A DNA stretch of 64,000 nt, taken from Bacteroidota bacterium. GTDB lineage: Bacteria > Bacteroidota > Ignavibacteria > UBA10030 > SZUA-254. The position numbers and the translations under genes were made by a program. The DNA is taken from assembly GCA_044449065.1 (NCBI GenBank), contig JBIOHP010000005.1, positions 107,374-171,373 on the forward strand, in the 5' to 3' direction. Under the pieces are notes generated by a model. That model searched no databases. It was not told where the DNA came from and saw nothing but the letters and a program-made list of their open reading frames with translations. Of the stretch, positions 4,527 through 57,838 are shown piece after piece. Numbering within the stretch: the stretch's first letter is position 1; every line of letters begins with the position of its first letter.

Positions 4527-4783
4527 AATGTTTTATTAATGTGGGTTCTAATTTGATATTAATTTTAACGATAGCAATTTTAAAACTCCCGATCCCCGGT
4601 GGTTTTCAATCAGAAGAAATTACTCTCTTCATTGAAACCGTTCACTTACCGCCGCAGCTTAAAAGTTTACCAGAGAGCTCCGCACCGCGATTGAAAAATA
4701 ATGATTGAACTAATTGTGAAGTAAGAACGGGAGAATATATTCAATACGCCGAGGTTGGAATACCACCCCGGTGTTTGTAAATC

Positions 4784-28056: not shown

Positions 28057-28145
28057 GATAATCTCCTAAATTGTATGTGATATTATTGAATTGAATGAAC
28101 TGAAGCTATTGCAATCTTACCGAATAGTAGTTTTAATTTTTCTCC

Positions 28146-33079: not shown

Positions 33080-33285
33080 GTGACAATATCCCAGTATAAG
33101 ATTTTAGAAAAACCCAGCCACAAAGACGGCGGGCAAGTCGGCGAAGGCGGCATGTCCCAAAATCACCCACGCGCGTTTTTTGCAAGTGGTTATGATTTTG
33201 CGGATCTCCCGTTGTTTGGATTCCGCTTTGACAACGGGATTCCAAAAAGCGGAACCGTTGAGCGAAGCGAGAACGGGAGCCCACT
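33080..33285 (+). promoter_or_regulatory. kinase leader element L1 (variant A): a uORF of about 69 codons ending in ATGA at the K1 start
   Basis: Degenerate copy of the kinase 5' end (GTG-TISQYKILEK), then the conserved block cccagccacaaagacggcgggcaagtcggcgaaggcggcatgtcccaaaatcacccacgcgcgttttttgcaagtgg...ggatctcccgttgtttggattccgctttgacaacgggattccaaaaagcggaaccgttgagcgaagcgagaacgggagcccactATG. Confidence 0.7.
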
Positions 33286-36015
33286 ATGATTGGGCAGACG
33301 ATATCTCACTACAAAATTCTTGAGAAATTGGGAGAGGGCGGAATGGGTGTTGTCTACAAAGCCCAGGATACAAAACTTGATCGCTTCGTCGCGTTAAAAT
33401 TCTTATCTCCTCATCTTGCCTCTTCGGAACAGGATAAGTCCCGTTTCACCCAGGAGGCGAAAGCCGCAGCGGCGCTCAATCATCCGAATATTTGCACGAT
33501 CATCGATATTCAGGAAAATGACGGCGTCATGTTTATCGTAATGGAATTTGTTGATGGTCAGACATTGCGCGAGAAAAAGGCATCCATCACGTTTAAACAG
33601 GCAATCGATATTGGAATTCAGATAGCGGAGGGTTTAGGCGCGGCTCATGATAAAGGCATCGTGCACAGGGATATCAAACCCGAAAACATCATGATCCGAA
33701 GGGATGGCATCGCGCAAATAATGGACTTTGGACTTGCGAAACTTCGCGGCAGCGTTACGCGGCTGACAAAAGAGGGGAGCACAATCGGCACGGCAGGATA
33801 TATGTCGCCGGAACAAGTGCAGGGACAGGATATCGACCACAGGTCGGATATATTTTCGTTTGGAGTTTTACTGTATGAACTTATCACCGGTCAGCTTCCG
33901 TTTAAGGGCGTACATGAAACTGCATTGATGTATGAAATTGTGAATATGGAAGCGCCGCCGATGTCTTCGATTAAACCGGACATAGAGGCAACCCTCGACG
34001 CGATTGTTCTGGAATGTTTAGAAAAAGATCCCAACGAACGAACGCAATCTGCCAAGCAGGTATCCATAGATTTAAAACATTTTAAACGCGAGTCAACGCG
34101 ACAGCGGGTCAGCCGCATCACAACGGCAAAGCCGGTACAATCATATTCAAATGTTAAGCAACCGGAACCGCAGAACATCCAGCTTTCCAAATCCACCGGA
34201 TTGGCAGGTAAAATACCCTGGTTAATTTCCATCGTCTGCCTGATTGGGTTCTCAGTATTTGCCGGTCTTTATTTGAAGCGCCAGAATATTGATCCCCAGA
34301 TGGTACAGTCATATATTCTCCCGCCCGAAAATTCCAGTTTTGCCACCCATTCCGGAAACACGGGAGAAGGACACCTTGCGCTTTCACCGGACGGAAGCAT
34401 GCTCGCCTTCGTGTGCGCTGATAGTGCGGGCAAAACTCACTTAATGGTCCGCCCTTTAAATTCTATCGATGCAAAAGAACTTCCTTCGACCCAGGAGGCG
34501 GGCTATCCGTTCTGGTCGCCGGATAATAGATACATTGGTTTTTTCCAGGGTGGAAAACTGAAAAAAATTGAAGCGTCCGGCGGACCTTCGTTGACGATAT
34601 GCGACGCAGCGGACGGACGCGGCGCATCATGGAATCAAGATGGAATAATCATACTGGCGCCAAACCCGGCCGGACCAATTTATCAGGTATCCGAGGCAGG
34701 CGGAACCCCTGTCGCCATCACAAAATTTGACACCACAAGACATACCCACTCGCACCGCTGGCCCTTCTTCCTGCCGGATGGAAAACATTTCCTCTATTTT
34801 TCACGATCAAGTTTTGGCGGCGTTGAACGGGAAGAGGACGCTCTTTATACCGCCTCCCTGGACGGAAAAGATAATAAACGACTTATACCTGCAAAGGCAA
34901 ATGTGGCATACGTTTCGGGTATGTTGATCTATTTAAGCGATAAAACGCTAATGGCGCAACGCTTCCAACCTGATAAACTTGAACTTATCGGGGAAGCCAA
35001 GCCGATAGCCGAACCTATTGAGTATGACCTGGATTATAATAGAGCGATTTTTACTGTGTCCCAGAATGGCATCCTCTGTTATCAATCACGAAGCACAAAA
35101 GTGGGCTGGCAGTTGGAATGGCTTGACCGCAAAGGCAATTTGGTGGGTAAAATTGGCGAACCTGCCCAGATAGGATCTGCGGCGCTATCACCCGACGAAA
35201 AAAAAATCGCCTATGATGTCTATGATCCTCAATCAAAAAATAAGGATATATGGATTTATGAGCTCGCGCGGGGAATTAAAACAAGATTTACCTTCGATCC
35301 CTCTGTAGACGAATTGCCAAATTGGTCGCCCGATGGCAGCAAGATTATATTTCATTCAGATCGAAAGGGACACTATGATTTGTACCAAAAAACAACTGAC
35401 GGAGAAGGGAGCGAGGATGTACTCCTTGAATCTCCAGAAGCGAAATTTCCTTACGATTTCTCGAGCGACGGTAAATATTTCACCTACTCAGCCAACGATT
35501 CCCATACCGGATCGGACATCTGGATTCTTCCACTCACCGGCGACAGAAAACCAATCAGATTAGTGCAATCGGAATTCGATGATGATGTTTCACACTTTTC
35601 AAGGGATATGCGGTGGATTTCCTACCGGTCGAATGAATCAGGCAACTACGAACTTTATGTCCGACCATTTCTGGATGCTGAAGGGAAAATAGCAACTACC
35701 CAGGCGCGTAAATGGCAAATATCCGTGAATGGAATCGCGGTCAATTCAAGTGAGGAATGGAGCAAAAATGGGAAGGAATTTTATTACCTCTCCCAGGATA
35801 ATAAATTTATCGCGGTTGAGGTCAGGACAAACGGATCATCGTTCGAGATTGGCAACTCAAACGAATTGTTTGACGTCAAATCGAATACCGCTATTTCTTT
35901 TGTCGATGCAAGCGCTGACGGAAATAAATTTCTTTTCATCGTCACTGTAGGCGGAGAGGTTCATCCTCCCATTACACTGGTGACAAATTGGGATAAGGAA
36001 CTTAAGAACCAATGA
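33286..36015 (+). CDS. receptor Ser/Thr protein kinase K1: Hanks-type kinase, TM helix, PD40/TolB-like beta-propeller
   Basis: Gly-loop LGEGGMGVVYKA, VALKFL, HRDIKPENIM, DFG and GTAGYMSPE. TM helix IPWLISIVCLIGFSVFAGLYL. Repeated SPDG/FSPDG propeller motifs, 909 aa. Confidence 0.9.
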   Translation: MIGQTISHYKILEKLGEGGMGVVYKAQDTKLDRFVALKFLSPHLASSEQDKSRFTQEAKAAAALNHPNICTIIDIQENDGVMFIVMEFVDGQTLREKKASITFKQAIDIGIQIAEGLGAAHDKGIVHRDIKPENIMIRRDGIAQIMDFGLAKLRGSVTRLTKEGSTIGTAGYMSPEQVQGQDIDHRSDIFSFGVLLYELITGQLPFKGVHETALMYEIVNMEAPPMSSIKPDIEATLDAIVLECLEKDPNERTQSAKQVSIDLKHFKRESTRQRVSRITTAKPVQSYSNVKQPEPQNIQLSKSTGLAGKIPWLISIVCLIGFSVFAGLYLKRQNIDPQMVQSYILPPENSSFATHSGNTGEGHLALSPDGSMLAFVCADSAGKTHLMVRPLNSIDAKELPSTQEAGYPFWSPDNRYIGFFQGGKLKKIEASGGPSLTICDAADGRGASWNQDGIIILAPNPAGPIYQVSEAGGTPVAITKFDTTRHTHSHRWPFFLPDGKHFLYFSRSSFGGVEREEDALYTASLDGKDNKRLIPAKANVAYVSGMLIYLSDKTLMAQRFQPDKLELIGEAKPIAEPIEYDLDYNRAIFTVSQNGILCYQSRSTKVGWQLEWLDRKGNLVGKIGEPAQIGSAALSPDEKKIAYDVYDPQSKNKDIWIYELARGIKTRFTFDPSVDELPNWSPDGSKIIFHSDRKGHYDLYQKTTDGEGSEDVLLESPEAKFPYDFSSDGKYFTYSANDSHTGSDIWILPLTGDRKPIRLVQSEFDDDVSHFSRDMRWISYRSNESGNYELYVRPFLDAEGKIATTQARKWQISVNGIAVNSSEEWSKNGKEFYYLSQDNKFIAVEVRTNGSSFEIGNSNELFDVKSNTAISFVDASADGNKFLFIVTVGGEVHPPITLVTNWDKELKNQ

Positions 36016-36202
36016 TTGGTCAAACCATCTCACAATACACTATTATTGAAAAGCTGGGAGAGGGCGGCATGTCCCAAACTTTCCCACGAGCGCAGCGAGT
36101 GGAAGAAAGTTTGAGGATCTCCCGTTGTTTGGATTCCGCTTTGACAACGGGATTCCAAAAAGCGGAACCGCTGGAACACAGTGGAAGCGGGAGGCGTGGA
36201 CT
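36012..36202 (+). promoter_or_regulatory. kinase leader element L2 (variant B, lacking the 27-nt CCCGCC..GGCGGG hairpin insert)
   Basis: The uORF ATG overlaps the K1 stop (ATGA at 36012-36015). The uORF MIGQTISQYTIIEKLGEGGMSQTFPRAQ... ends in ATGA at the K2 ATG (36203). Confidence 0.7.
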
Positions 36203-38899
36203 ATGATTGGGCAGACAATATTTCACTACAAAATTCTTGAGAAATTGGGAGAGGGCGGTATGGGCATTGTTTATAAAGCCCACGATATAAAGCTGGATCG
36301 TTTTGTTGCTCTAAAATTCCTTCCCCAGCATCTCGCCGCTTCACAGCAGGATAAGAGCCGGTTTGCTCAGGAAGCAAAAGCCGCAGCAGCGCTCAATCAT
36401 CCTAATGTATGTTCCATTATCGACATTCAGGAATATGATGGACCCTCCTCCGCCGGGGCTCCGGCGGGCAAGCAGATGTTTATTGTTATGGAGTTTGTGG
36501 ATGGCGTCACCCTGCGGGAGAAAAAACAATCCATCAGTTTCAAACAGGCAATTGATATCGGCGTTCAAATCGCCGATGGGCTCGCAGCCGCGCATGAGAA
36601 GGGCATCGTCCACCGGGATATAAAACCGGAAAACATCATGATTCGAAAAGACGGCATCGCTCAGATTATGGATTTCGGGTTGGCAAAACTCCGGGGGAAT
36701 ATCACCCGGCTGACAAAGGAAGGCAGCACAATCGGCACGGCGGGGTACATGTCACCTGAACAAGTTCAGGGACAAGACACGGATCATCGTTCGGATATCT
36801 TTTCATTCGGCATTCTTCTGTATGAACTTTTTACGGGAGAATTGCCCTTCAAAGGAATCCATGAAACAGCGTTAATGTATGAAATTGTGAATGTTGAACC
36901 GGCGCCGATGTCATCTGTGAAACCGGAAATTGACCCATCTCTTGACGCCATCGTTCTGGAATGTTTAGAAAAAGATCCGAATGAGCGGACTCAGTCGGTA
37001 AAACAAGTCTCTGTTGATCTGAAACATTTCAAACGTGAAACGAGCCGTGAGCGCTTAACCCGGACAATTAAAACAAAACCGCTACAAAAAGACACTGGCA
37101 TTGGTAATACTGACCGGAGCGAATCAGTACAAACACCCCGCCGCAATTGGATCTGGCATGGTATTTACGGATCATTATTACTTGTACTTTTAATATATGT
37201 GTGGAAGCCATGGAACAAAGACCCAGCCGCTCTTCCTCCTCCCATGCATTTTAATGTGGACGTGCCACCTCGAGCTCCTTTGATAGGAGGCAGCGACGAT
37301 ATCACTATCTCTCCGGACGGAAAAAAAATTGTTTACGCCGGCTCGAATCCCTCCAATCCACAATTGTTCCTTCGGAAAATTGATCAACTGGATGTTCAGG
37401 GAATCCCTAACACGGAAGGAGCAGATGAACCGGTCTTTTCACCTGACGGACAATGGATTGCTTATGTTCAGAGCGACAAGATCAAGAAGGTTTCCATCCT
37501 CGGCGGCGCCCCCGAAATGTTATGTGGAACTCAAGGTTTACCCAGAGGTCTGTGGTGGGCTGAAGATAATAATATTTACTTTGGACACATCAGCCGGGCT
37601 TTATTTAAAGTACCTTCCGCAGGCGGTACACCAACCCGGATCACTACCCTCGACAGTGCAAATGGTGAAATCAGTCACCGGTACCCCCAGCTTCTGCCGG
37701 ATGGAAAAACCATACTCTTCACCATTAAACCGAATAACATATCTTCATTCAGCGACGCCATGATTGCCGTTCAACGATTGGGAACAAACGAGAAGAAAAT
37801 ATTAATCCACGGCGGAACCTACGGTCGTTTTCTCCCATCCGGGTACCTGGTTTATGTTCGTGAAAATACAATTTTTGCGGCGCGATTTGATCCGGATCGG
37901 CTTGAGATTCAAGGATCACCCCAGCCCATAACTCAGGGCGGGTGGCTCAACGAAGGTTCCGGAAGCGCTGGAATCAGTGTTTCAACTGCAGGAAATCTCA
38001 TCTATGTTCCAGAGGGCTTGATTGATTTAAAAAATACCGCTCTCGTTTGGATGGATCGTCAGGGAAAATCGTACCCGCTGCTTGATTCACTGGGTTCCTA
38101 TGGCGGAGTAACGGTTTCACCTGATAACCAAAAAATAGCTTTGAACCTACAGGCGGCAAATGATGATATATGGATTTATCAAATAGCCCGTGGGACACTC
38201 ACACGCCTAACATTCGGGGGCGGTAATAATAATTTCCCAATTTGGACTCCTGATAATAAGTATGTGGTATATAATGCTGAAAAAGGAAAATCTCCCAATA
38301 TCTACAGAAAACCCTGGGATGGAAGCGGGGAAGAAGAACGCCTGACGACAAGTGATGAGGCGCAATTTCCTTCTTCGATTAGCCCTGATGGTAAACTCCT
38401 TGCTTTCATCCAGAATTCCGATATATGGATATTACCGCTTGAGGGTGACCGGAAACCCTGGCGCTTTATCCAGTCGCAAGCCACTGAAGCAACTCCTATG
38501 TTTTCTCCCGATGGCCGTTGGATGGCATATGCATCAAACGAATCCGGAAAATTTGAGGTCTATGTTGTACCCTTTCCTAAACACGAAGGGAAGTGGCAGA
38601 TATCAAACGGCGGCGGCAATGGACCCATTTGGTCAAGAAATGGAAAAGAATTGCTCTATGGAAGCGGCACGTCTATGATGGCTGCCGAAATTACTCCTGG
38701 GCAATCATTCGATTTTTCCGTCCCCAAAAAAATATTGGAACTAACTTCGTCAAATGCTGTCGCATACGATGTAACCTCCGATGGAAACCGTTTCATTGTT
38801 GGTTTGGCTCGTAGGGGCATTTTTACGATTAATCATTTTAACATCATTCTTAACTGGACTACGGAGTTAAAAGAAAAATTTGCAGAGAATAAAAATTAA
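36203..38899 (+). CDS. receptor Ser/Thr protein kinase K2: kinase, TM, PD40 beta-propeller
   Basis: MIGQTIFHYKILEKLGEGGMGIVYKA, HRDIKPENIM, DFG. TM helix WIWHGIYGSLLLVLLIYVW. PD40 repeats. The track ORF is extended 78 nt upstream from a TTG. ATG at 36203. Confidence 0.9.
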   Translation: MIGQTIFHYKILEKLGEGGMGIVYKAHDIKLDRFVALKFLPQHLAASQQDKSRFAQEAKAAAALNHPNVCSIIDIQEYDGPSSAGAPAGKQMFIVMEFVDGVTLREKKQSISFKQAIDIGVQIADGLAAAHEKGIVHRDIKPENIMIRKDGIAQIMDFGLAKLRGNITRLTKEGSTIGTAGYMSPEQVQGQDTDHRSDIFSFGILLYELFTGELPFKGIHETALMYEIVNVEPAPMSSVKPEIDPSLDAIVLECLEKDPNERTQSVKQVSVDLKHFKRETSRERLTRTIKTKPLQKDTGIGNTDRSESVQTPRRNWIWHGIYGSLLLVLLIYVWKPWNKDPAALPPPMHFNVDVPPRAPLIGGSDDITISPDGKKIVYAGSNPSNPQLFLRKIDQLDVQGIPNTEGADEPVFSPDGQWIAYVQSDKIKKVSILGGAPEMLCGTQGLPRGLWWAEDNNIYFGHISRALFKVPSAGGTPTRITTLDSANGEISHRYPQLLPDGKTILFTIKPNNISSFSDAMIAVQRLGTNEKKILIHGGTYGRFLPSGYLVYVRENTIFAARFDPDRLEIQGSPQPITQGGWLNEGSGSAGISVSTAGNLIYVPEGLIDLKNTALVWMDRQGKSYPLLDSLGSYGGVTVSPDNQKIALNLQAANDDIWIYQIARGTLTRLTFGGGNNNFPIWTPDNKYVVYNAEKGKSPNIYRKPWDGSGEEERLTTSDEAQFPSSISPDGKLLAFIQNSDIWILPLEGDRKPWRFIQSQATEATPMFSPDGRWMAYASNESGKFEVYVVPFPKHEGKWQISNGGGNGPIWSRNGKELLYGSGTSMMAAEITPGQSFDFSVPKKILELTSSNAVAYDVTSDGNRFIVGLARRGIFTINHFNIILNWTTELKEKFAENKN

Positions 38900-38917
38900 T
38901 TTCTCACCAATTATCCG

Positions 38918-39132
38918 ATGATCGGAAAAACTATCTCACACTACAGGATTCTCGAGAAGCCCCGCCATAAAGACGGCGGGCAAGTTGGCGAGGGCGGAAT
39001 GTCCCAAAATCACCCACGCGCGTTTTTTGCAAGTGGTTGTGATTTTGCGGATCTCCCGTTGTTTGGATTCCGCTTTGACAACGGGATTCCAAAAAGCGGA
39101 ACCGTTGAGCGAAGCGAGAACGGGAACCCCCT
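38918..39132 (+). promoter_or_regulatory. kinase leader element L3 (variant A)
   Basis: uORF MIGKTISHYRILEKPRHKDGGQVGEGGMSQNHPRAFFASGCDFADLPLFGFRFDNGIPKSGTVERSENGNPL, with its stop overlapping the K3 ATG. Confidence 0.7.
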
Positions 39133-41805
39133 ATGATTGGACAGTCAATATCTCATTACAAAATCCTTGAGAAGCTGGGAGAAGGCGGGATGGGGATCGT
39201 CTATAAAGCAGAGGATACTAACCTCAAAAGAATTGTCGCATTGAAATTTTTACCCAGCCATCTTTCTGCATCGGAAGCCGACAAAGCGCGATTTATACAG
39301 GAAGCACAGGCGGCATCCTCGCTTAATCATCCCAATGTCTGCACTATTCACGATATCCAGGAACACGACGGGCAAATGTTCATCGTGATGGAATTTGTCG
39401 ACGGTCAAACATTACGGGAAAAAAAATCATCCATTACCATGAAACAGGCAATCGATATCGGCATCCAGATCGCTGATGGGCTTGCCGCCGCACATGAGAA
39501 AGGGATTATCCACCGGGATATCAAACCCGATAATATCATGGTCCGGAAGGATGGCATCGTTCAAATTATGGATTTCGGGTTGGCCAAGCTCAGAGGTGTC
39601 TCGAAATTAACGAAAGAAGGAAGCACAATCGGAACTGCAGGGTACATGTCGCCTGAACAAGTGCAGGGTTTAGAGACGGATCATCGTTCGGATATATTTT
39701 CTTTCGGTGTACTTTTATTCGAGCTTTTAACGGGACAACTCCCATTTAAAGGTGTCCATGAAACAGCGATTGCATACGAAATTGTAAACGTCGATGCTCC
39801 CCCTATGTCATCCATTAAACCTGAAATCGATTCAGCGCTTGATGCTATTGTTCTGGAATGTCTTGCAAAAGAACCTTCGGAACGATCCCAATCAATTGCG
39901 GAAGTTGCTAAAGATCTGCGGCGGTACAAACGGGAATCAAGCAGGCAGCATCTGAGCAGGTCATTCCCCGCGCAATCTGCAATACGTCAGATAGGCGCCG
40001 TGACTTCTGCCCCCACTGTTGCGATCACTCCTCAACGAAGCATTCTTCCGTGGGGAATTGCAGGGATGCTTCTCATTGTAACATCCATATTGCTATTTCG
40101 TCAATATTTCGCCTCGGCTGAACGTCAGCCCCTATTAATAGCTTCCATCGCTCCGCCCGATAGCGTATACATTCACTCGTACGGTCAGGCAGCAGGTCCC
40201 CCGGCAATTTCACCTGACGGCAGGACAATCATGTATTGTGGAGTGGCTTCTAACGGAATTACCCAGATTTATGTTCGTTCGCTTCATGAAAATGTTACGC
40301 GAGCACTGGATGGAACAAACTACGCGCAATATCCATTCTGGTCGCCGGATGGAAAACAGATCGGATTCTTCGCCGGAGGGAAAATCAAGAAGATAGAGGT
40401 CGATGGCGGTTCTCCTGTAACGGTTTGTGTTGCCATCAATCCCCGCGGCGGGACATGGAGCAGCGCTGGAGTGATTCTCTTCGCCCCCGATTACCAATCG
40501 CCGATCTCCCGGGTATCCGCCGATGGCGGGATTCCGGAGCCATTAACGAAATTAGACACCTCGCGCAATGAAGTATCGCATCGATGGCCCTTTGCTTTGC
40601 CTGATGGAAAACACTTTCTCTATTTTTCGCGTATAGCTAACAATTCCGGTCCCGCGGAGGGTCATGCCGTCTATGCTTCGTCGCTCGATGGAAAAGATAA
40701 CAGGTTGGTTCTCCGCACCAATTCCAATGCCGTCTACGCCGCCGGGTACTTGCTTTTTGTCCGGGGATCGACATTGATGGCGCAACAATTCGATCAATCC
40801 TCCGTGCAGCTAAAGGGCGATCCCGCTCCATTGGCGGAAGGTGTCATTGATGATCCCGGATTTAATCAATCGGTTTTTTCCGCATCGCAAACGGGGATCC
40901 TGATTTACCAGCCAGGAAATGTACGAGCCGGAGCAAAATTATTAATCACCGATCTCAACGGTAAAATAATTTCAACCCTAGGTGAGAGCATAGAAAACTT
41001 TCGCGTCCGTTATGCTCCTGACGGAGAGCATATCATTGCCAGCATTTTCGATCCTAAGTTGTTGCGATTAAATATCTGGGAATATGATCTCCATACCGGC
41101 GGTAGGAACCGGATCACCTCAGGCACCGGCGAAGATAACGCGATCCCCTCTCCGACCAGCGATGATATTATTTATTCTTCCCAGCGAACCGGCGTTTGGA
41201 ATTTGTACGAAAAATCGATGAGTGGTCAGGGTGGTGATTCAGCCCTTCACCCATCCCCAAGCTATGATTTATCTCTTGATTGGTCGCGCGACGGTTCCCT
41301 TGTATTATTTTCGAGAGTAGAACCATCTAAAACCCAAGCAGATTTGTGGATCATGCAAATGAAGAATGCACATGAACAATATCCGGTGGTAAACACGGAG
41401 TTTGACGAAGTTGGGGGGCGGTTCTCACCCGATGGTAAATGGATCGCTTATGTTTCGAACGAGAGCGGCGACTACGAAGTTTATATAAAATCAGCCGTGA
41501 AAACGGAAACTCAAAGTTGGAAGATTTCATCAGCAGGCGGATACTTTCCCTGCTGGGCAGGCAGCAGCAATGAATTGTGTTATGTGAGCAGTGAGAATAA
41601 AATGATGCTTGTCACTCTCCGGTACAAAGATAAGATGGTCGAGGTTGCGAGTATCCATTCTTTATTTAGTGTACCCGCATTTTTGGAGAGTTATGATATC
41701 TCCCCCAATGGAAAAACGATGGTAATCAATCGCAGTCTTGAAATGCAAAAATCGGCGCCGCTGACTATGCTCGTCAACTGGCAGGAGGAGTTGAAACAGA
41801 AATGA
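39133..41805 (+). CDS. receptor Ser/Thr protein kinase K3: kinase, TM, PD40 beta-propeller
   Basis: LGEGGMGIVYKA, HRDIKPDNIM, DFG, TM helix ILPWGIAGMLLIVTSILLF, PD40 repeats, 890 aa. Confidence 0.9.
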   Translation: MIGQSISHYKILEKLGEGGMGIVYKAEDTNLKRIVALKFLPSHLSASEADKARFIQEAQAASSLNHPNVCTIHDIQEHDGQMFIVMEFVDGQTLREKKSSITMKQAIDIGIQIADGLAAAHEKGIIHRDIKPDNIMVRKDGIVQIMDFGLAKLRGVSKLTKEGSTIGTAGYMSPEQVQGLETDHRSDIFSFGVLLFELLTGQLPFKGVHETAIAYEIVNVDAPPMSSIKPEIDSALDAIVLECLAKEPSERSQSIAEVAKDLRRYKRESSRQHLSRSFPAQSAIRQIGAVTSAPTVAITPQRSILPWGIAGMLLIVTSILLFRQYFASAERQPLLIASIAPPDSVYIHSYGQAAGPPAISPDGRTIMYCGVASNGITQIYVRSLHENVTRALDGTNYAQYPFWSPDGKQIGFFAGGKIKKIEVDGGSPVTVCVAINPRGGTWSSAGVILFAPDYQSPISRVSADGGIPEPLTKLDTSRNEVSHRWPFALPDGKHFLYFSRIANNSGPAEGHAVYASSLDGKDNRLVLRTNSNAVYAAGYLLFVRGSTLMAQQFDQSSVQLKGDPAPLAEGVIDDPGFNQSVFSASQTGILIYQPGNVRAGAKLLITDLNGKIISTLGESIENFRVRYAPDGEHIIASIFDPKLLRLNIWEYDLHTGGRNRITSGTGEDNAIPSPTSDDIIYSSQRTGVWNLYEKSMSGQGGDSALHPSPSYDLSLDWSRDGSLVLFSRVEPSKTQADLWIMQMKNAHEQYPVVNTEFDEVGGRFSPDGKWIAYVSNESGDYEVYIKSAVKTETQSWKISSAGGYFPCWAGSSNELCYVSSENKMMLVTLRYKDKMVEVASIHSLFSVPAFLESYDISPNGKTMVINRSLEMQKSAPLTMLVNWQEELKQK

Positions 41806-42016
41806 TCGGAAAAACCGTTTCCCATTATAAGATTATCGAGAAGCCCCGCCACAAAAACGGCGGGCAAGTCGGCGAGGGCGGAATGTCCCAAACTTTCCCA
41901 CGAGCGCAGCGAGTGGATGAAAGTTTGAGGATCTCCCGTTGTTTGGATTCCGCTTTGACAACGGGATTCCAAAAAGCGGAACAGCTGGAACGCAGTGGAA
42001 GCGGGAGGCGTGGACT
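41802..42016 (+). promoter_or_regulatory. kinase leader element L4 (variant B)
   Basis: The uORF ATG overlaps the K3 stop (ATGA). Sequence ...cccgccacaaaaacggcgggcaagtcggcgagggcggaatgtcccaaactttcccacgagcgcagcgagtggatgaaagtttgaggatctcccgttgtttggattccgctttgacaacgggattccaaaaagcggaacagctggaacgcagtggaagcgggaggcgtggactATG. Confidence 0.7.
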
Positions 42017-44392: not shown

Positions 44393-44468
44393 AAATTATG
44401 ACCGGAAGTATAGGTTCAAGCAAGTATGGTGTTATCAACAATACGCGAGAGAAAAATAGGAGAAGTTT

Positions 44469-46598: not shown

Positions 46599-46602
46599 AT
46601 AC

Positions 46603-46817
46603 GTGATAGGTCGGATAATATCACACTACGACATCATTGAAAAATCCCGCCATAAAGACGGCGGGCAAGTCGGCGAGGGCGGCATGTCCCAACATCACTC
46701 GCGAATTGTTTTTACCAGTGATTGTGATGTTGCGAATCTCCCGTTGTCTGGATTCCGCTTTGTCAACGGGATTCCAAAAAGCGGAACCGTTGAGCGAAGC
46801 GAGAACGGGAACCCACT
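46603..46817 (+). promoter_or_regulatory. kinase leader element L5 (variant A, GTG-initiated degenerate uORF)
   Basis: GTG-IGRIISHYDIIEKSRHKDGGQVGEGGMSQ..., with the stop overlapping the K6 ATG (ATGA). Confidence 0.65.
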
Positions 46818-49202: not shown

Positions 49203-49247
49203 TATGAAACTCACATTATAAAAGGACAGGAATAAGCGAGGTCAACT

Positions 49248-49682
49248 ATGACAACGGTTAGAAATATCATACAAGCTAAGGGGAGCAACGTCTGGGCGAT
49301 TGGTCCCACGGCTTCCGTGTTTGAAGCCCTCAAATTGATGGCGGAAAAAAATGTTGGGGTATTACTTATCAGGGAAGGAGAAGCGGTGGTGGGGATATTA
49401 TCGGAGCGCGATTACGCCCGCAAGATTGCCCTAAAGGGATTGACTTCGCACAAGGTGTTAGTTAAAGAAATCATGACAGCGAAGGTCATATCCATCGCGC
49501 CAGAACAATCCATCGACGACTGTATGGCTATTATGCTGGAAAAACATATCCGCCATCTTCCTGTCATGGAAAACAACCTTTTAAGAGGGATCGTCTCGAT
49601 CGGCGATGTGGTTAAAGCTATTGTCGCTGAACGGGAGCAAACAATTGAACACCTGACAAACTACATAACCGGAAACCGGTAG
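49248..49682 (+). CDS. CBS-domain pair protein
   Basis: 144 aa with two CBS motifs (…GVLLIREGEAVVGILSERD… and …HLPVMENNLLRGIVSIGD…), inserted between K6 and leader L6. Confidence 0.75.
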   Translation: MTTVRNIIQAKGSNVWAIGPTASVFEALKLMAEKNVGVLLIREGEAVVGILSERDYARKIALKGLTSHKVLVKEIMTAKVISIAPEQSIDDCMAIMLEKHIRHLPVMENNLLRGIVSIGDVVKAIVAEREQTIEHLTNYITGNR

Positions 49683-49685
49683 GCA

Positions 49686-49900
49686 ATGATCGGTCAAACA
49701 ATTTCCCATTATAAGATTCTTGAAAAGCCCCGCCACAAAGACGGCGGGCAAGTCGGCGAGGGCGAAATATCCCAAAATCACCCACGCGCGTTTTTTGCAA
49801 GTGGTTGTGATTTTGCGGATCTCCCGTTGTTTGGATTTCGCTTTGACAACGGGATTCCAAAAAGCGGAACCGTTGAGCGAAGCGAGAACGGGAGCCCCCT
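49686..49900 (+). promoter_or_regulatory. kinase leader element L6 (variant A)
   Basis: uORF MIGQTISHYKILEKPRHKDGGQVGEGEISQNHPRAFFASGCDFADLPLFGFRFDNGIPKSGTVERSENGSPL, with its stop overlapping the K7 ATG. Confidence 0.7.
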
Positions 49901-52285
49901 ATGATTGGGCAGACAATATCTCATTACAAAATTCTTGAGAAATTGGGTGAGGGTGGAATGGGCATCGTCTACAAGGCAGAAGACACGCGTCTTCACCGGA
50001 TGGTGGCTATAAAGATATTGCCGACTCACCTCGCCGTTCACGGCGAGGAGCGTGAACGCTTTACCCTTGAGGCGCAAGCGGCTTCAGCGATTAACAATCC
50101 GAACATCTGTACGATTTATGAAATTGATGAAACGAACGATGATACGTTTATCGTGATGGAATATGTCGAAGGGAGTACGGTTCGCGAATGGATTCAGAAG
50201 AAACTCAGTGAAACGGAAGGATTCCGCAAGACGGGACTAACAGAAGCGATTCACCTTGCTATCCAGATTGCCGAGGGACTTGATAAGGCGCACGAAAAGG
50301 GAATCGTTCACCGCGATATTAAGTCGGAGAACGTGATGGTCACCCCGGATGGCCGCGCGAAGATCATGGATTTTGGATTGGCGAAACTTCGCGGCGTCAG
50401 TAAGCTTACAAAAGTAGGCAGCACGGTCGGAACACTTGCCTATATGTCTCCCGAGCAGATCGAAGGACTCGAAACAGACCACCGCACAGACATTTTCAGT
50501 TTCGGCGTCCTGCTCTATGAAATGATCACGGGGAAACTTCCGTTTCTCGCCGCCCACGAAGCGGCAATCATGTACGAGATCATCAATGTGGTGCCGCAGC
50601 AACCCTCGCAGGTGCGCCAGACCGTCGACTTGGAGCTCGACCGGATAGTCATGAAGTGCATGGAAAAGAATCGTGACGAACGATATCAATCGTTGAAAGA
50701 AGTTGTCGTTGATCTTCGACGATTTAGCCGAGACTCCTCAGGTAAAACGATGGCTCGTCCGGCTACCATGAGTGATCACGCCCACCAGAACAAGAGTGCT
50801 TCTTCACCACGGTCATCAAGAACGAATATTGCAGCGATTGCAGGCAGCGTAATTCTTATAAGCGCTTCACTCTCATATTACTACTTCACACACCACCCAT
50901 CCTCAATCGATTCGCTCGCAGTGCTTCCGTTCGTCAACGCCAGCCCCGATTCAAGCATGGAATATCTCAGCGATGGAATCACCGAGTCTCTCATCAATTC
51001 TCTCTCGCAACTCCCGGACTTAAAAGTGATGTCGAGGAATTCGGTTTTTCGTTATAAGGGAAGCAATGCCGATCTTCAAACGATCGGACGGGAAGTCGGC
51101 GTCCATGCGATACTATTGGGGCGCGTGTTGGAACGTGGGGATAATCTCAGCATCAGTGCCGAGCTGATCAATGTATCGGATAACAGCCATCTCTGGGGCG
51201 AGCAGTACAACAGGAAATCTGCAGACCTCCTCGCCGTTCAGGAAGAAATAACACGCGATATTTCAGATAAATTGAAGCTTCGCCTCGCCGACAAGGACGA
51301 AAAACATTCCGCCAAAGCATCAACCGAGAACACGGAAGCATACCAATTGTACCTGAAAGGTCGTTATCACTGGAACAGGCGTTCCGCCGACGAGCTCCGG
51401 AAAGCGATTGATTACTTCCAGCAGGCGGTTGAATCAGACCCAAATTATGCCCTCGCCTATTCAGGAATTGCAGATGCATACGGAGTCCTCGGGTGGTTTG
51501 AATATGGCATAGTGTCTCCGCGCGATGCGTTCCCCAAAGCCAAAGCCGCAGCGCTCAAAGCCGTGGCAATCGATCCGGGGCTGGCTGAAGGATATGCCTC
51601 TCTTGCCTTTGCGTACCAGCACGATCATGACACACTTGCCGCGTCTCAGAACTACAAACGGGCGATTGAACTTAATCCTTCATATCCGACCGCCCATCAT
51701 TGGTATTCCGAGGAGTTGATGAGCGAGGGGAAAAAGGATGAATCTATCGAAGAGATAAAGCGCGCGCTCACCCTCGATCCGCTTTCGTTGATTATTACCC
51801 GCGATGTGGGCTGGATGTATTACTTCGCCCGCCGGTACGACGAAGCGAGTGTATACATTCAAAAATCGTTGGATCTCGATTCGAATTTTTCGCGGGGCCA
51901 TCTTCTCCTTGGTCTGTGCCGCATCCAGCAGGGAGCGCTTGGCGATGCCATAACCGAATTCAAAACAGCTTCGAAATTCTCGAACGAGACTATCAGTACC
52001 GCCCTCCTTGCCTATTGTTATGCTAAAGCTGGAAAAACCACCGAGGCAAAAGATATTCTCCGGAGTATGCTTTCACTTTCCTCATCGAAGTATGTTTCGC
52101 CCGGCGCAATTGCGCTGGTCTATATGGGCCTCGGAGATCGGGAAAAGATTTTCGAGTGGCTTAACAAAGCTGTCGACGATCAATCGGGAATTTTTGGTTT
52201 TGTAAAGGTTGATCCGCTCTTTGATGGCATCAGGAATGATCCCCAATTCGTCGCATTGCTGCACAAGGGAGGGATCCCTCTATGA
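49901..52285 (+). CDS. receptor Ser/Thr protein kinase K7: kinase, TM, alpha/beta module, TPR
   Basis: LGEGGMGIVYKA, HRDIKSENVM, DFG, a TM helix, AVLPFVNASPDSSMEYLSDGITESLINSL, TPR repeats. Confidence 0.9.
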   Translation: MIGQTISHYKILEKLGEGGMGIVYKAEDTRLHRMVAIKILPTHLAVHGEERERFTLEAQAASAINNPNICTIYEIDETNDDTFIVMEYVEGSTVREWIQKKLSETEGFRKTGLTEAIHLAIQIAEGLDKAHEKGIVHRDIKSENVMVTPDGRAKIMDFGLAKLRGVSKLTKVGSTVGTLAYMSPEQIEGLETDHRTDIFSFGVLLYEMITGKLPFLAAHEAAIMYEIINVVPQQPSQVRQTVDLELDRIVMKCMEKNRDERYQSLKEVVVDLRRFSRDSSGKTMARPATMSDHAHQNKSASSPRSSRTNIAAIAGSVILISASLSYYYFTHHPSSIDSLAVLPFVNASPDSSMEYLSDGITESLINSLSQLPDLKVMSRNSVFRYKGSNADLQTIGREVGVHAILLGRVLERGDNLSISAELINVSDNSHLWGEQYNRKSADLLAVQEEITRDISDKLKLRLADKDEKHSAKASTENTEAYQLYLKGRYHWNRRSADELRKAIDYFQQAVESDPNYALAYSGIADAYGVLGWFEYGIVSPRDAFPKAKAAALKAVAIDPGLAEGYASLAFAYQHDHDTLAASQNYKRAIELNPSYPTAHHWYSEELMSEGKKDESIEEIKRALTLDPLSLIITRDVGWMYYFARRYDEASVYIQKSLDLDSNFSRGHLLLGLCRIQQGALGDAITEFKTASKFSNETISTALLAYCYAKAGKTTEAKDILRSMLSLSSSKYVSPGAIALVYMGLGDREKIFEWLNKAVDDQSGIFGFVKVDPLFDGIRNDPQFVALLHKGGIPL

Positions 52286-55005: not shown

Positions 55006-55216
55006 TCGGTCAAATAATTTCACATTATAAGATTCTTGAAAAGCCCCGCCACAAAGATGGCGGGCAAGTCGGCGAAGGCGGAATGTCCCAAACTTTCCCA
55101 CAAGCGCAGCGAGTGGATGAAAGTTTGAGGATCTCCCGTTGTTTGGATTCCGCTTTGACAACGGGATTCCAAAAAGCGGAACAGCTGGAACGCAGTGGAA
55201 GCGGGAGGCGTGGACT
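55002..55216 (+). promoter_or_regulatory. kinase leader element L7 (variant B)
   Basis: The uORF ATG overlaps the K8 stop. uORF MIGQIISHYKILEKPRHKDGGQVGEGGMSQTFPQAQRVDESLRISRCLDSALTTGFQKAEQLERSGSGRRGL, with its stop overlapping the K9 ATG. Confidence 0.7.
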
Positions 55217-57589
55217 ATGATCGATCAAACGATATCTCATTACAAAATTCTTGAGAAGTTAGGTGAAGGCGGCATGGGAGTGGTCTACAAAGCTGAAGAT
55301 ACGAATCTCAAGCGCATCGTCGCCCTGAAATTCTTGCCTCATCATCTCACGACCAACGACGCAGAAGGCGCGCGGTTTATCCAAGAGGCACAGGCGGTTG
55401 CCGCGCTCAATCATCCGAACATCTGCGCGATTTATTCTTTCGGCGAGCATGAAGGCACCCACTTTATCGAGATGGAATTGGTGGAGGGAGTCACTCTGCG
55501 TCATAAGCTGCCGATCCAGAAGCAGGCCGACGCCGTGAGCTACGCAATTCAAATCGGCGAGGCACTGCAAGAAGCACACAGTAAGGGGATCGTGCACCGC
55601 GATGTTAAAGCTGAAAATATCATGACGAATACCAAGAACCAGATTAAGGTTATGGACTTTGGCTTGGCGAAGCTCAAGGGATCGTTGAAGCTCACCAAAA
55701 AGTCGAGCAGGATCGGCACGCTCGCTTATATGGCGCCTGAGCAGATTCAAGGCGGAGAAGTGGATGCGAGGAGCGACCTGTTTTCGTTCGGTATTGTGGT
55801 GTTTGAAATGCTCACGGGCAGGACGCCATTCCGCGGCGAGCACGAGGCTGCGACGATTTATTCGATCGTGAACGAGCCGCCGGAGTCACTCTTGAAACTC
55901 CGGCCGGACGTTTCGCCGGAGCTTGAGCGGATCGTTCACCGCGCAGTTGAAAAAGACCCTGAGGACAGGTATCAATCGGCCGCGGATATGGTGAGCGAAC
56001 TGCGGCGTGTGCAGAAGCAATCGACGAAAGTTTCGAGAACGATGGAGAAGGGGATTGCTCCGGCATTGACATCCGAAACGAGGCTCGGTGCAGCAGCGGC
56101 ATCGGATGTGGCGACTTCGCCGAATCGAACCCGGCAATTCATGATCGCCGGAATTGTCCTCGCGGTCATCGCCGCCGTGATCGTTGGGTATTTATTGTTC
56201 TCAACCAAGCGTCAGACAATTGACTCGCTTGCGGTTCTGCCGTTTGTCAACGTCTCGACCGATCCCGAAAAGGAATATCTCACTGAAGGCGTCACGGAAA
56301 ATATCACTAATAAACTTTCACAGTTTTCCGGACTTCGGGTCATTCCGAGGAGTTTGGTTGCGCGCTATAAAGGAGCAGACGTTGATCCCCGCGCCGCCGG
56401 TGCGGATCTGAAAGTCGGCGCAGTGTTGACGGGAAGAATTATTCAGCGCGGTGACTCACTCGATATTCAGACCGAGCTGATCGATGTGCACAATGTTTCG
56501 CAAATTTGGGGTGAGCACTATAACCGCCCATCGTCCGATTTAGTGGAGATCCAAGATGATATCATCAAGAATATTTCTGGAAAAATCAAAGGGGAAGCAA
56601 GCGCGGAAGAAAACAACCGCCTCATTCATTCCCGGGCAGTCGATCCCGAAGCGTACAAACTTTATTTGCAGGGGATGTATTTTTGGAACAAACGCTCTGC
56701 TGAAGGCAACAGAAAAGCGATCGAATATTTTGAGAACGCTGTTGGGAAAGACCCCACCTATGCGCTCGCGTATATCGGCATCGCGGACGCGTACATATTG
56801 GCGGCTGTCTTAAGCAGTCATCCTGCCGATTTTCGTGAGCGCATAAAGGCGGCGGCGTTGAAAGGGTTGGAGTTGGACAGCGCTTTGCCCGAAGCGCATG
56901 CTGCGCTGGGCGATGAACTGGCCTATTTTGAATTCGATCTTAAAGGCGCGGAACGGGAGCTTCGCCGGGCAATTACGCTCAATCCAAATTATGCGACCGG
57001 TCATCATTGGCTCGGAGAATTTCTTGTCGCCGTGGGTAAATACGACGAGGGACTTGCGGAATACCGGCGCGCAATGGAACTCGATCCGGTATCGCTCGCC
57101 ATCAGCTCCGACTACGCGTATGGCTTGTATTTTGCCCAACAATTTGACCGCTCTATCGAAGAGTTGAAAAAGATTATTGAAACCGATCCGAATTTTGTTC
57201 GCGCGCATTTCTATATCACTCTTCCGTATCTCATGAAGGGGATGCCGAAGGCAGCGTTCGACGAATTCATCAAAGGGATGGTTGCAGAGGGAGACAGCGC
57301 CGCAACAATTGCGGCGATACAACATGCTTTTGCCGTCTCCGGTTACAATGGGGTTGTAAAACTGCAGTTGGAACTAGCGGACACACTACCCATCGCTACT
57401 GCAATCTTTGACGCCGCAAGATGCTATGCCTTTCTTGGCGATAAGAATAGCGCTCTGGCGACATTGGAGAAAGAATACGAGGAAAGGCAATATAGCGCCC
57501 TAGGAATACTCGTCGAACCGATGTTTCACAATCTGCGAAAAGAACCAAGGTTTATCGCCCTGTTCAACAAGCTGGAAAACAACAAGTGA
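55217..57589 (+). CDS. receptor Ser/Thr protein kinase K9: kinase, TM, alpha/beta module, TPR
   Basis: LGEGGMGVVYKA, HRDVKAENIM, DFG, TM helix FMIAGIVLAVIAAVIVGYLLF, AVLPFVNVSTDPEKEYLTEGVTENITNKL, TPR repeats. ATG at 55217; the track ORF is TTG-extended. Confidence 0.9.
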   Translation: MIDQTISHYKILEKLGEGGMGVVYKAEDTNLKRIVALKFLPHHLTTNDAEGARFIQEAQAVAALNHPNICAIYSFGEHEGTHFIEMELVEGVTLRHKLPIQKQADAVSYAIQIGEALQEAHSKGIVHRDVKAENIMTNTKNQIKVMDFGLAKLKGSLKLTKKSSRIGTLAYMAPEQIQGGEVDARSDLFSFGIVVFEMLTGRTPFRGEHEAATIYSIVNEPPESLLKLRPDVSPELERIVHRAVEKDPEDRYQSAADMVSELRRVQKQSTKVSRTMEKGIAPALTSETRLGAAAASDVATSPNRTRQFMIAGIVLAVIAAVIVGYLLFSTKRQTIDSLAVLPFVNVSTDPEKEYLTEGVTENITNKLSQFSGLRVIPRSLVARYKGADVDPRAAGADLKVGAVLTGRIIQRGDSLDIQTELIDVHNVSQIWGEHYNRPSSDLVEIQDDIIKNISGKIKGEASAEENNRLIHSRAVDPEAYKLYLQGMYFWNKRSAEGNRKAIEYFENAVGKDPTYALAYIGIADAYILAAVLSSHPADFRERIKAAALKGLELDSALPEAHAALGDELAYFEFDLKGAERELRRAITLNPNYATGHHWLGEFLVAVGKYDEGLAEYRRAMELDPVSLAISSDYAYGLYFAQQFDRSIEELKKIIETDPNFVRAHFYITLPYLMKGMPKAAFDEFIKGMVAEGDSAATIAAIQHAFAVSGYNGVVKLQLELADTLPIATAIFDAARCYAFLGDKNSALATLEKEYEERQYSALGILVEPMFHNLRKEPRFIALFNKLENNK

Positions 57590-57623
57590 ACGGCAACATG
57601 TTTCTTCAAACGTTCCATACGCT

Positions 57624-57838
57624 ATGATGAGCCACACGATTTCCCACTACAAGCTTCTCGAGAAGCCCCGCCATAAAGACGGCGGGCAAGTCGGCGAGGG
57701 CAACATGTCCCAAACTTTCCCACGAGTGCGGCGAGTGGATGGAAGTTTGAGGATCTCCCGTTGTTTGGATTCCGCTTTGACAACGGGATTCCAAAAAGCG
57801 GAACAGCTGGAACGCAGTGGAAGCGGGAGGCGTGGACT
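57624..57838 (+). promoter_or_regulatory. kinase leader element L8 (variant B)
   Basis: uORF MMSHTISHYKLLEKPRHKDGGQVGEGNMSQTFPRVRRVDGSLRISRCLDSALTTGFQKAEQLERSGSGRRGL, with its stop overlapping the K10 ATG. Confidence 0.7.

Follow-up and report, generated by a model that had tools for sequence, protein, structure and literature searches.

We analysed a 64,000-nt stretch of contig JBIOHP010000005.1 from a Bacteroidota bacterium (hereafter the window), in which ten same-strand genes for Hanks-type Ser/Thr kinases, K1-K10, cover positions 33286-60520 on the map of open reading frames (ORFs). All ten encode a Pkinase domain followed by a PD40 beta-propeller or TPR repeats, and the proteins share 32-60% identity among themselves. 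Eight of the ten kinase genes are each preceded by an upstream ORF (uORF) of 64-72 codons, whose TGA overlaps the kinase ATG as ATGA in every case. The eight leaders can be aligned along their entire length and fall into two variants, A (L1, L3, L5, L6) and B (L2, L4, L7, L8). Together with their relatives in other assemblies, they probably form a widespread family, so far undescribed, of mRNA leaders that are both translated and structured and that precede Hanks-type kinase genes in uncultured Ignavibacteria/Bacteroidota-like bacteria. The kinase genes and uORFs are listed below, where the stub is the beginning of the uORF, which copies the kinase N-terminus.

33080-33289, plus strand: uORF L1, variant A, GTG start, degenerate stub VTISQYKILEK, ATGA on K1
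33286-36015, plus strand: K1, Hanks-type Ser/Thr kinase with PD40 beta-propeller, 909 aa
36012-36206, plus strand: uORF L2, variant B, without a 27-nt insertion, ATG overlapping the K1 stop (36015), ATGA on K2
36203-38899, plus strand: K2, kinase, 898 aa
38918-39136, plus strand: uORF L3, variant A, ATGA on K3
39133-41805, plus strand: K3, kinase, 890 aa
41802-42020, plus strand: uORF L4, variant B, ATG overlapping the K3 stop (41805), ATGA on K4
42017-44392, plus strand: K4, kinase with TPR, 791 aa
44469-46598, plus strand: K5, kinase with TPR, no leader, 709 aa
46603-46821, plus strand: uORF L5, variant A, GTG start, the most diverged copy, ATGA on K6
46818-49202, plus strand: K6, kinase, 794 aa
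49686-49904, plus strand: uORF L6, variant A, ATGA on K7
49901-52285, plus strand: K7, kinase, 794 aa
52282-55005, plus strand: K8, kinase with PD40, no leader, 907 aa
55002-55220, plus strand: uORF L7, variant B, ATG overlapping the K8 stop (55005), ATGA on K9
55217-57589, plus strand: K9, kinase, 790 aa
57624-57842, plus strand: uORF L8, variant B, ATGA on K10
57839-60520, plus strand: K10, kinase, 893 aa

The leaders lie where a preliminary description of this DNA had placed them, and its account of the uORF lengths, the ATGA overlaps, the start codons of L2, L4 and L7 lying on upstream kinase stops, and the presence of a leader (L1) even before the first kinase is borne out. It had also proposed that a ribosome could pass from kinase to uORF to kinase along the whole array; the overlapping start and stop codons allow such passage, but the chain is broken at four short untranslated gaps of 18, 76, 45 and 34 nt, which follow K2, K4, K6 and K9, respectively. 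K5 and K8, the two kinases of ten without a leader, are ordinary gene arrangements, and K5 (44469) has a 76-nt spacer upstream and its own AGGAG.

The leader is not confined to this locus. A protein search with the uORF product recovered 92 small unannotated ORFs of matching design from NCBI, JGI, ENA and Logan assemblies, and their common peptide design reads MIGQTISHYKILEK, an optional insert, and then LGEGGM-SQNHPRALFASGCDFEDPPSFWRRRxL. The top match, NCBI hypothetical protein ACHQQQ_04580 from a Bacteroidota metagenome-assembled genome (MAG), is identical to the L6 product. In all, the leader architecture recurs in about 100 clusters of small ORFs, and more than 30 loci with it, designated here by three-digit numbers (L001 and so on), were retrieved from Ignavibacteria/Bacteroidota-like MAGs and sediment metagenomes. 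As well, a 20-mer from the conserved hairpin part of the leader matches 21 metagenome contigs and five MAG contigs, the latter comprising contigs assigned to Ignavibacteria, Ignavibacteriales and Bacteroidetes and two short ones that are probably mis-binned; every one of these matches lies between a kinase-like stub and a full kinase start. When the hairpin-encoded peptide alone was used as the query, the only proteins matched were ORFs starting with the kinase stub, indicating that the element is tied to this kinase family. In the gene maps of L001, L034, L035, L038 and L040, a small ORF overlaps the kinase start by 4 nt. Leaders are also found before solitary and first-in-array kinases, and in L009, L014, L016, L019, L028 and L034 they are stacked two to four deep, joined by ATGA.

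Two leader-bearing MAG contigs, L005 (SLIA01000293.1, 3.8 kb) and L007 (CAYHQK010000087.1, 8.8 kb), are labelled as Wenzhouxiangella (Gammaproteobacteria) and Nitrospira, respectively. Both match contigs from Ignavibacteriales or other samples, and their taxonomy probably reflects binning errors, not a broader host range.

A scan of the whole window with Rfam (release 15) returned only a tRNA at the gathering threshold, and the best E-values inside a leader were 3.8-4.8, for unrelated eukaryotic or viral models. Literature searches on uORFs or coupling with bacterial kinases or Ignavibacteria retrieved nothing specific. The statement in the preliminary description that this combination is not recognisable in any described regulatory element thus stands, as does its argument that the leader is not a duplication scar, since matching leaders occur upstream of kinases in many other assemblies, where they show covariation and conservation of the reading frame.

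Across 38 distinct leaders the order of the unit is the same: a stub copying kinase codons 1-20, a P1-P2 hairpin, a P3 hairpin and the ATGA. P1-P2 is a hairpin of ~21 bp and 56 nt, which stands directly 3' of the Met-20 codon, has the ends TCCCAAAAT...ATTTTGNGGA and reads UCC-CAAAAUCAC-CCAC-GA-GCG...loop...GC-GA-GUGG-nn-GUGAUUUUG-n-GGA. Its 12-bp stem is followed by a 2-nt bulge, then by a 4-bp stem and a tandem G.A/A.G loop, beyond which come two to three further pairs; the tip of the hairpin is variable and tolerates extra hairpins. A covariance model, R1, was built from the hairpin alignment, and the window copies score as follows, those of L6 and L7 being present in the minimum free energy (MFE) fold.

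33152-33207, plus strand: P1-P2 of L1, CAAAATCAC/GTGATTTTG stem, CCAC/GTGG stem and tandem G.A loop, R1 69.8 bits
36069-36120, plus strand: P1-P2 of L2, CAAACTTTC/GAAAGTTTG, three compensatory pairs relative to variant A, R1 67.6 bits
38999-39054, plus strand: P1-P2 of L3, R1 78.2 bits
41883-41934, plus strand: P1-P2 of L4, R1 69.2 bits
46684-46739, plus strand: P1-P2 of L5, CAACATCAC/GTGATGTTG, one additional compensatory pair, R1 58.0 bits
49767-49822, plus strand: P1-P2 of L6, R1 74.7 bits, MFE fold
55083-55134, plus strand: P1-P2 of L7, R1 65.0 bits, MFE fold
57705-57756, plus strand: P1-P2 of L8, R1 63.9 bits

The pairing was scored on an alignment of 37 distinct hairpins (A2), against a structure that we wrote down ourselves. 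In A2, 95.3% of the cells are paired, compared with 84.4% in shuffles; 14 of the 19 pairs show changes on both sides, and 75 cells are changed on both sides where 15 are expected. None of 500 shuffles attained the observed pairing and covariation, and slid controls were 28-46% paired. G.U occurs at one pair in 19 sequences. Compensated versions of the first stem (5'/3' arm) include AUCAC/GUGAU, CUUUC/GAAAG, ACGGC/GCCGU, AUUGC/GCAAU and AUUUC/GAAAU, and in some leaders the second stem CCAC/GUGG is swapped for CCGC/GCGG or CUGC/GCAG. These compensatory changes alter the encoded peptide, which reads SQNHPRA..CDF, SQNGPRT..CRF, FQISPRA..WKF or SQTFPRA..ESL. R1 was applied to the ~290 kb of fetched DNA plus the window, where sense copies score 43-83 bits and antisense copies at most 21 bits, and where no copy of the hairpin was found outside leaders. 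Moreover, RNAalifold on full minimal leaders recovered P1-P2 with P3 immediately next to it, and whole leaders are more stable than shuffles (fold z-scores of -3.1, -3.7 and -2.2). The hairpin therefore shows the compensatory changes, the strand specificity and the fixed position relative to the gene by which a structured cis-regulatory RNA is recognised.

Two further structural readings of this region were considered. A kink-turn was rejected, as Watson-Crick pairs adjoin the tandem G.A on either side and the 2-nt bulge lies 4 bp away, whereas a kink-turn has a 3-nt bulge right beside such pairs. Long-range pairing between the stub and the true N-terminus was rejected too, the consensus fold offering only weak, G.U-rich pairs with no double changes.

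The reading frame is conserved through these structures. Of 38 distinct uORFs, 37 run without interruption as far as the ATGA at the following kinase-type (MIGQ...) start, across 19 distinct uORF lengths from 141 to 273 nt and at least five kinds of stub/hairpin junction (usually after codon 20, otherwise after GE or after codons 31, 38 and 60), and the insertions inside the stub measure 24, 27, 45, 48 or 63 nt. The other two frames are stop-free in 1/37 and 0/37 leaders, and shuffled hairpin parts are stop-free 21% of the time. ATG is the start codon of 35 distinct leaders and GTG that of the other three. As the hairpins were located by DNA pattern or by the covariance model, independently of ORF calls, the frame result is not circular. 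We take this as strong comparative evidence that translation has to proceed through the hairpins and end at the kinase start, and it supports the earlier suggestion that the uORF acts as a coupling device.

The stub consists of the start codon and ~20 codons that duplicate the kinase N-terminus (MIGQTISHYKILEKLGEGGM). Between stub codons 2-14 and the N-terminus just downstream, the proportion of synonymous differences (pS) is 0.87 and that of replacement differences (pN) 0.13. For the stubs overall, pN is 0.13-0.16 and pN/pS 0.15-0.18; the ratio is 0.18 among stubs and 0.125 among genuine kinase N-termini. Such a pattern suggests either that selection acts on the stub as a peptide or that functional N-termini regularly serve to renew it. 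The preliminary description had argued for conservation at the RNA or DNA level with no functional peptide; the covariation of the hairpin agrees with this, but the first 14-20 codons appear constrained as a peptide, so the claim is borne out only for the part after the stub.

P3 is a GC-rich hairpin (CCGCC...GGCGG or CCCGCT...AGCGGG) that abuts P1-P2, and its 3' arm continues into AGG. Nearly all leaders carry GGAGG 5-8 nt before the kinase ATG, a Shine-Dalgarno (SD) site, which in variant B of the window is found at these positions.

42003-42008, plus strand: SD-like GGGAGG in the 3' arm or flank of P3 (L4), 8 nt before the K4 ATG
36189, 55203 and 57825, plus strand: GGGAGG, SD of the other variant B leaders

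The median energy of the duplex between the leader SD and the anti-SD is -10.3 kcal/mol, whereas 17 other genes in the window have a median of -4.7 and random 20-mers one of -2.9, so the leader SD is much the stronger. The predicted unpaired probability has a median of 0.20 at the SD and 0.72 at the kinase ATG, from which we infer that P3 would occlude the kinase SD on a ribosome-free leader. An erm-like alternative pairing of the P3 5' arm with the GGNGGN of the stub was also looked for by eye and is not conserved across leaders.

On these observations we favour, as the probable mechanism, that ribosomes translating the uORF melt the occluded SD and re-initiate on the kinase. In an untranslated leader, P3, stacked on P1-P2, would hold the kinase SD paired and direct initiation would be poor. 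A ribosome starting on the stub, or arriving from the upstream kinase at an overlapping stop and start, would unwind P1-P3, terminate at the UGA that overlaps the kinase AUG and then, aided by the freed SD, start again at this AUG, and kinase output would thereby follow translation of the uORF. The conserved helix with its G.A loop is a likely point at which a factor or condition might tune the flow of ribosomes, and such units can be stacked two to four deep.

Several points weigh against this reading. The start of K8 overlaps the stop of K7 directly (ATGA, 52282-52285) and there is no leader between them; since K7 and K8 are thus coupled without a leader, the leader must add something beyond coupling. 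The constraint on the stub peptide (pN/pS 0.15-0.18) is unaccounted for by a role in ribosome delivery alone. Occlusion of the SD is a thermodynamic prediction, the P3 stems have few pairs and include only half of the GGAGG, while the variant A leaders have a weaker SD, GGGAGC or GGGAAC, at 33275, 39122, 46807 and 49890 (plus strand). The conserved positions of the core hairpin lie mainly in its stems and the tandem G.A loop, its loops are variable and it has no conserved unpaired pocket such as a riboswitch would use for its ligand. Finally, the compared sequences are related, not independent, so that the shuffle statistics overstate significance, and some metagenomic contigs may be chimeric at these repeats.

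The leaders also carry accessory modules. The most conspicuous one in the window is a 54-nt block, GGATCTCCCGTTGTTTGGATTCCGCTTTGACAACGGGATTCCAAAAAGCGGAAC, which is present in eight copies with 0-3 mismatches, in keeping with the near-identity first noted for the leaders, and is absent from the rest of the window; shuffled sequences contained no match.

33202-33255, plus strand: 54-nt block of L1
36115-36168, plus strand: 54-nt block of L2
39049-39102, plus strand: 54-nt block of L3
41929-41982, plus strand: 54-nt block of L4
46734-46787, plus strand: 54-nt block of L5
49817-49870, plus strand: 54-nt block of L6
55129-55182, plus strand: 54-nt block of L7
57751-57804, plus strand: 54-nt block of L8

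Variants A and B read this common block in different frames, as had been described, and the 4-nt difference between them in the P2 loop is offset by +1 and +3 nt near P3. The block, which had served as evidence for conservation at the RNA or DNA level, is not the conserved core of the family. A 48-mer from it with three N gave 0 exact matches in GTDB genomes and a 24-mer gave 0 in JGI metagenomes, which was first read as a lack of enrichment elsewhere and instead indicates that the block is lineage-specific. By comparison with standard leaders (e.g. L013 and L016_1622), it is a 46-49-nt palindromic insertion in the P3 5' arm, and the insertion carries the interleaved repeats CCCGTTG...CAACGGG and TTCCGC...GCGGAA. 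Related copies of the module, TCCCGYT..GGATTCCGC..ARCGGGATTCC..AGCGGAA, occupy four positions relative to the leader, among them the following, and within the ~297 kb examined they were seen only in or beside kinase leaders.

L022, ~6885-6935: related module copy, upstream of the stub
L012, ~4577-4690: related module copy, in the P2 loop
L016, ~1003-1050: related module copy, in the stub

The last of these, 48 nt long and in frame, is the sole difference between L016 and L019 over 1.8 kb that are otherwise 100% identical. Such presence or absence and the differing positions mark the module as a small mobile or indel-prone palindromic unit. The L016 module shares 40/49 identities with the window block in reverse and 34/49 in forward orientation; as the module is quasi-symmetric, its presence in both orientations is only suggestive. 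Along the same pair of loci (L016 1-5240 and L019 1314-6469), identity falls to ~70-93% from about kinase codon 15 onward, which reflects either a recombination breakpoint in the N-terminal coding region (a swap of the kinase body) or a chimeric assembly.

The 27-nt CCCGCC hairpin (P0) is a further accessory insertion, in frame between stub codons 14 and 15, a site that holds different hairpins at other loci. It is present in seven leaders at the positions below. The preliminary description had it missing solely in L2, where it is indeed absent, but the L1 copy is degenerate (CCAGCC).

49729-49748, plus strand: P0 hairpin of L6, CCCGCC-N8-GGCGGG
33114-33133, plus strand: P0 hairpin of L1, degenerate
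38961-38980, plus strand: P0 hairpin of L3
41845-41864, plus strand: P0 hairpin of L4
46646-46665, plus strand: P0 hairpin of L5
55045-55064, plus strand: P0 hairpin of L7
57667-57686, plus strand: P0 hairpin of L8

Read on the minus strand, this hairpin is followed by a short T run and looks terminator-like in L5 (46646-46665) and L1 (33117-33130), where it might stop antisense transcription or have arisen by chance.

The near-identity of the eight window copies is real, but it is peculiar to this genome, as leaders of one locus diverge elsewhere. Within L016, L018 and L034 the leaders differ among themselves by compensatory changes, which suggests that the leaders there are as old as their kinases. 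In the window, near-identical leaders stand before kinases of ~50% identity, and synonymous divergence is higher among the stubs (pS 0.80) than among the downstream N-termini (pS 0.46); together these indicate that the segment from the hairpin to the N-terminus has been homogenised in this genome. Homogenisation into two variants most likely came about through gene conversion, the other option being recent spread.

Truncated kinase 5' fragments of 31-98 codons, without the hairpin, are frequent beside these arrays.

L001, 2589-2801: truncated kinase 5' fragment
L012, 2158-2253 and 4730-4843: truncated kinase 5' fragments
L022, 4214-4372: truncated kinase 5' fragment
L031, 887-1063: truncated kinase 5' fragment
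L024, 655-951, minus strand of the stored locus: truncated kinase 5' fragment

In L031, what comes after a normal leader is a kinase fragment of 58 codons and, beyond it, unrelated ORFs. Rearrangement thus seems to be frequent at the leader loci, the breakpoints lying in the 5' region of the kinase.

These features raise the question of whether the leaders could be selfish or neutral palindromic DNA, that is, hairpins resembling miniature inverted-repeat transposable elements (MITEs) or repetitive extragenic palindromic (REP) sequences, which gathered at tolerant kinase 5' ends and have no regulatory role. The stub would then be a remnant of rearrangement, and the frame and the ATGA would be kept only because broken versions silence the kinase. 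The 48-nt presence/absence difference in otherwise identical DNA, the module copies at four positions and probably in both orientations, the further hairpin insertions nested in the stub, the P2 loop and P3, the common truncated 5' fragments and the homogenised window leaders all speak for such an origin. However, the core P1-P2 hairpin occurs only inside leaders, on the sense strand only and at essentially one position; compensatory changes preserve it among paralogous leaders, which have diverged as far as the kinases that they precede; all hairpin-only protein matches bear the kinase stub; and the ORFs of the window include no transposase, REP-associated tyrosine transposase (RAYT), IS200-IS605 TnpA or recombinase. 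The explanation fits the accessory modules, not the core hairpin, and as an account of the leaders we consider it unlikely. Even if it were correct, conservation of the frame would imply that the uORF is functionally required for kinase expression.

A variant of this thought is that the hairpin, the SD and a fresh N-terminal coding segment together form a gene-targeted, self-propagating start cassette. It would spread among paralogous kinases by recombination in their conserved first 20 codons, displace the old N-terminus, which would be left as the stub, and impose uORF-dependent translation on the gene that it entered. We regard this as quite unlikely; if true, the cassette would represent a novel type of genetic element, able to invade a gene family via its most conserved coding sequence. 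A second speculative reading has the stub act as a nascent-chain mimic that would let the kinases, or a partner of theirs, control kinase translation by feedback.

It is very unlikely that P1-P2 is instead a site for RNA processing or stability, such as an RNase III-type site or a protective hairpin by which polycistronic kinase mRNA is cut or stabilised. The helix, with 3+9+4+2+3 stacked pairs, runs to about two turns and has a conserved internal loop and bulge, and a long transcript is plausible, as in the window no plus-strand terminators lie between the kinases and sigma-70 promoters are not enriched there, nor is either kind of signal enriched in the leaders. Such a role would leave unexplained why the uORF has no stop within the hairpin and terminates precisely at the kinase ATG, and cleavage would leave the stub on a non-stop mRNA.

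The leader peptide could also be imagined as a functional micropeptide or nascent chain, mimicking the beta-1 strand and glycine loop of the kinase N-terminus and acting in trans on kinases or in cis as a ribosome sensor. The synonymous saturation of stub codons 2-14, with few replacements, and the ATG start of 35 of the 38 leaders would agree with this. Yet the remaining peptide is read in different frames and its sequence shifts with the compensatory changes in the RNA, many leaders have a stub interrupted by in-frame hairpin insertions of 8-21 codons, and conservation of the stub could stem from conversion by, or recent origin from, real N-termini. We consider the idea highly improbable. 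The null hypothesis of the preliminary description, duplication-junction debris between paralogs at this locus only, has in its favour that the leaders hold a partial copy of the kinase 5' end, but it is almost certainly wrong and is ruled out by the comparative data, namely matching architecture in many unrelated assemblies, covariation and frame conservation, and leaders before solitary and first-in-array kinases.

Several more specific candidates were rejected. Minus-strand ORFs of 70-87 codons in the leaders do not point to an antisense gene, as most frames there are open simply on account of nucleotide content, and R1 scores the sense strand far higher. An H-type pseudoknot or frameshift signal in the 54-nt block was dismissed because the block is an accessory insertion, the MFE folds use other pairings and there is no slippery site; the interleaved repeats do exist, however, and are seen again in L012, L016 and L022. 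For -1 frameshifting, G GGG GGA-like strings are present in a few stubs and not conserved, and the match to the eiav_FSE model scored 11.6 bits against a threshold of 40. Bypass of the T4 gene 60 type was discarded, as no stop follows the Met-20 codon and the kinase copy downstream begins anew from its first codon, with an SD. An integron attC array was excluded by the lack of a recombinase in the window and of RYYYAAC/GTTRRRY boxes. Lastly, the core hairpin is not a REP/MITE-type element, being confined to kinase leaders and to the sense strand, while the 46-49-nt module does share with such elements its indel polymorphism, its four positions and probably its two orientations.

Returning to uORF-dependent re-initiation, the class of mechanism is known: a leader cistron opens an occluded start. 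Translational coupling through a leader cistron underlies the synthetic 'bicistronic designs', of which the kinase leader would be a natural counterpart. In such coupling the stop of a short upstream ORF overlaps the main start, and the main ribosome-binding site is buried in structure. Natural systems include the iraD uORF in E. coli (PMC5574718) and a small ORF that is reported to promote translation of a Salmonella Mg2+ transporter (PMC8092293). The kinase leaders resemble the uORF coupling systems in their short leader cistron, ATGA-type overlap and second SD inside the leader cistron, and also in the opening of structure around the main start by the leader ribosome, which we infer for the kinase leaders. 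They differ in that the leader copies the first 20 codons of the controlled gene under replacement constraint, has a family-wide covarying hairpin, forms stacks two to four deep that are chained along arrays, and is confined to one kinase family in uncultured bacteria of the Fibrobacteres-Chlorobi-Bacteroidetes (FCB) group. The self-mimicking stub, the conserved hairpin, the stacking and the nested in-frame insertions are what is unusual in this family.

The erm/cat leader-peptide attenuators and secM-secA depend on regulated ribosome stalling and mutually exclusive hairpins, and their leader stop does not overlap the main start. Like them, the kinase leaders combine a translated leader with mRNA hairpins that hide a downstream SD (here a prediction), but they lack conserved alternative pairing and any known stalling motif. 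The accessory modules are similar to Rickettsia palindromic elements, cyanobacterial small dispersed repeats and REP sequences or bacterial interspersed mosaic elements (BIMEs) in their presence/absence polymorphism, nesting and in-frame lengths. Unlike those repeats, the core hairpin is not dispersed and is found in one orientation and one context, always with stub and ATGA, and no cognate transposase was seen in the window. Integron attC sites are imperfect palindromes of 55-150 nt between tandem same-strand genes, which, like the kinase leaders, have bulged bases and a variable terminal loop and keep their structure better than their sequence; the kinase-leader hairpin differs in lying inside a translated uORF upstream of its gene and in folding better on the sense strand. 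Frameshift pseudoknots and T4 gene 60 also have a hairpin right after a specific codon and a repeated coding segment downstream, and interleaved complementary segments of the 54-nt block could form an H-type pseudoknot. In contrast to these recoding signals, the leaders show no conserved slippery heptamer and no stop after the take-off codon, and since the kinase copy downstream is complete from its first codon and has an SD and ATG of its own, the full kinase needs no recoding.

Many bacteria have very large numbers of Hanks-type kinases, yet the way in which they adjust the expression of these genes is almost wholly unknown. The leader described here is compact and recognisable from sequence, comes with a covariance model and marks a kinase subfamily in uncultured Ignavibacteria/Bacteroidota, and it makes a testable prediction, that kinase translation is slaved to a uORF reading through a conserved hairpin. 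Beyond the bicistronic design it would offer two extras, a leader peptide that mimics the N-terminus of the regulated protein and a conserved G.A-loop hairpin that resembles a recognition site. It also illustrates that small palindromic insertions can nest within a translated leader if the frame is kept.

Exact-sequence look-ups of K6 and P0003 found no record. No recombinase, integrase, transposase, RAYT or reverse transcriptase was found among the ORFs of the window, whose remaining genes are housekeeping genes. One gene inside the kinase array encodes another type of protein, and two lie directly upstream of the array.

49248-49682, plus strand: gene for a CBS-pair protein, 144 aa, 45 nt from K6 and 3 nt from L6
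30223-31509, plus strand: gene for a GAF + PP2C (SpoIIE-type) phosphatase
32142-32900, plus strand: ABM-domain gene

The GAF + PP2C phosphatase is a plausible partner of the kinases. Finally, an FCB-group (Bacteroidota/Ignavibacteriota) origin of the window is supported by three large secreted proteins with type IX secretion C-terminal sorting domains, which are encoded on the minus strand at 23950-29807 and 19711-21672.

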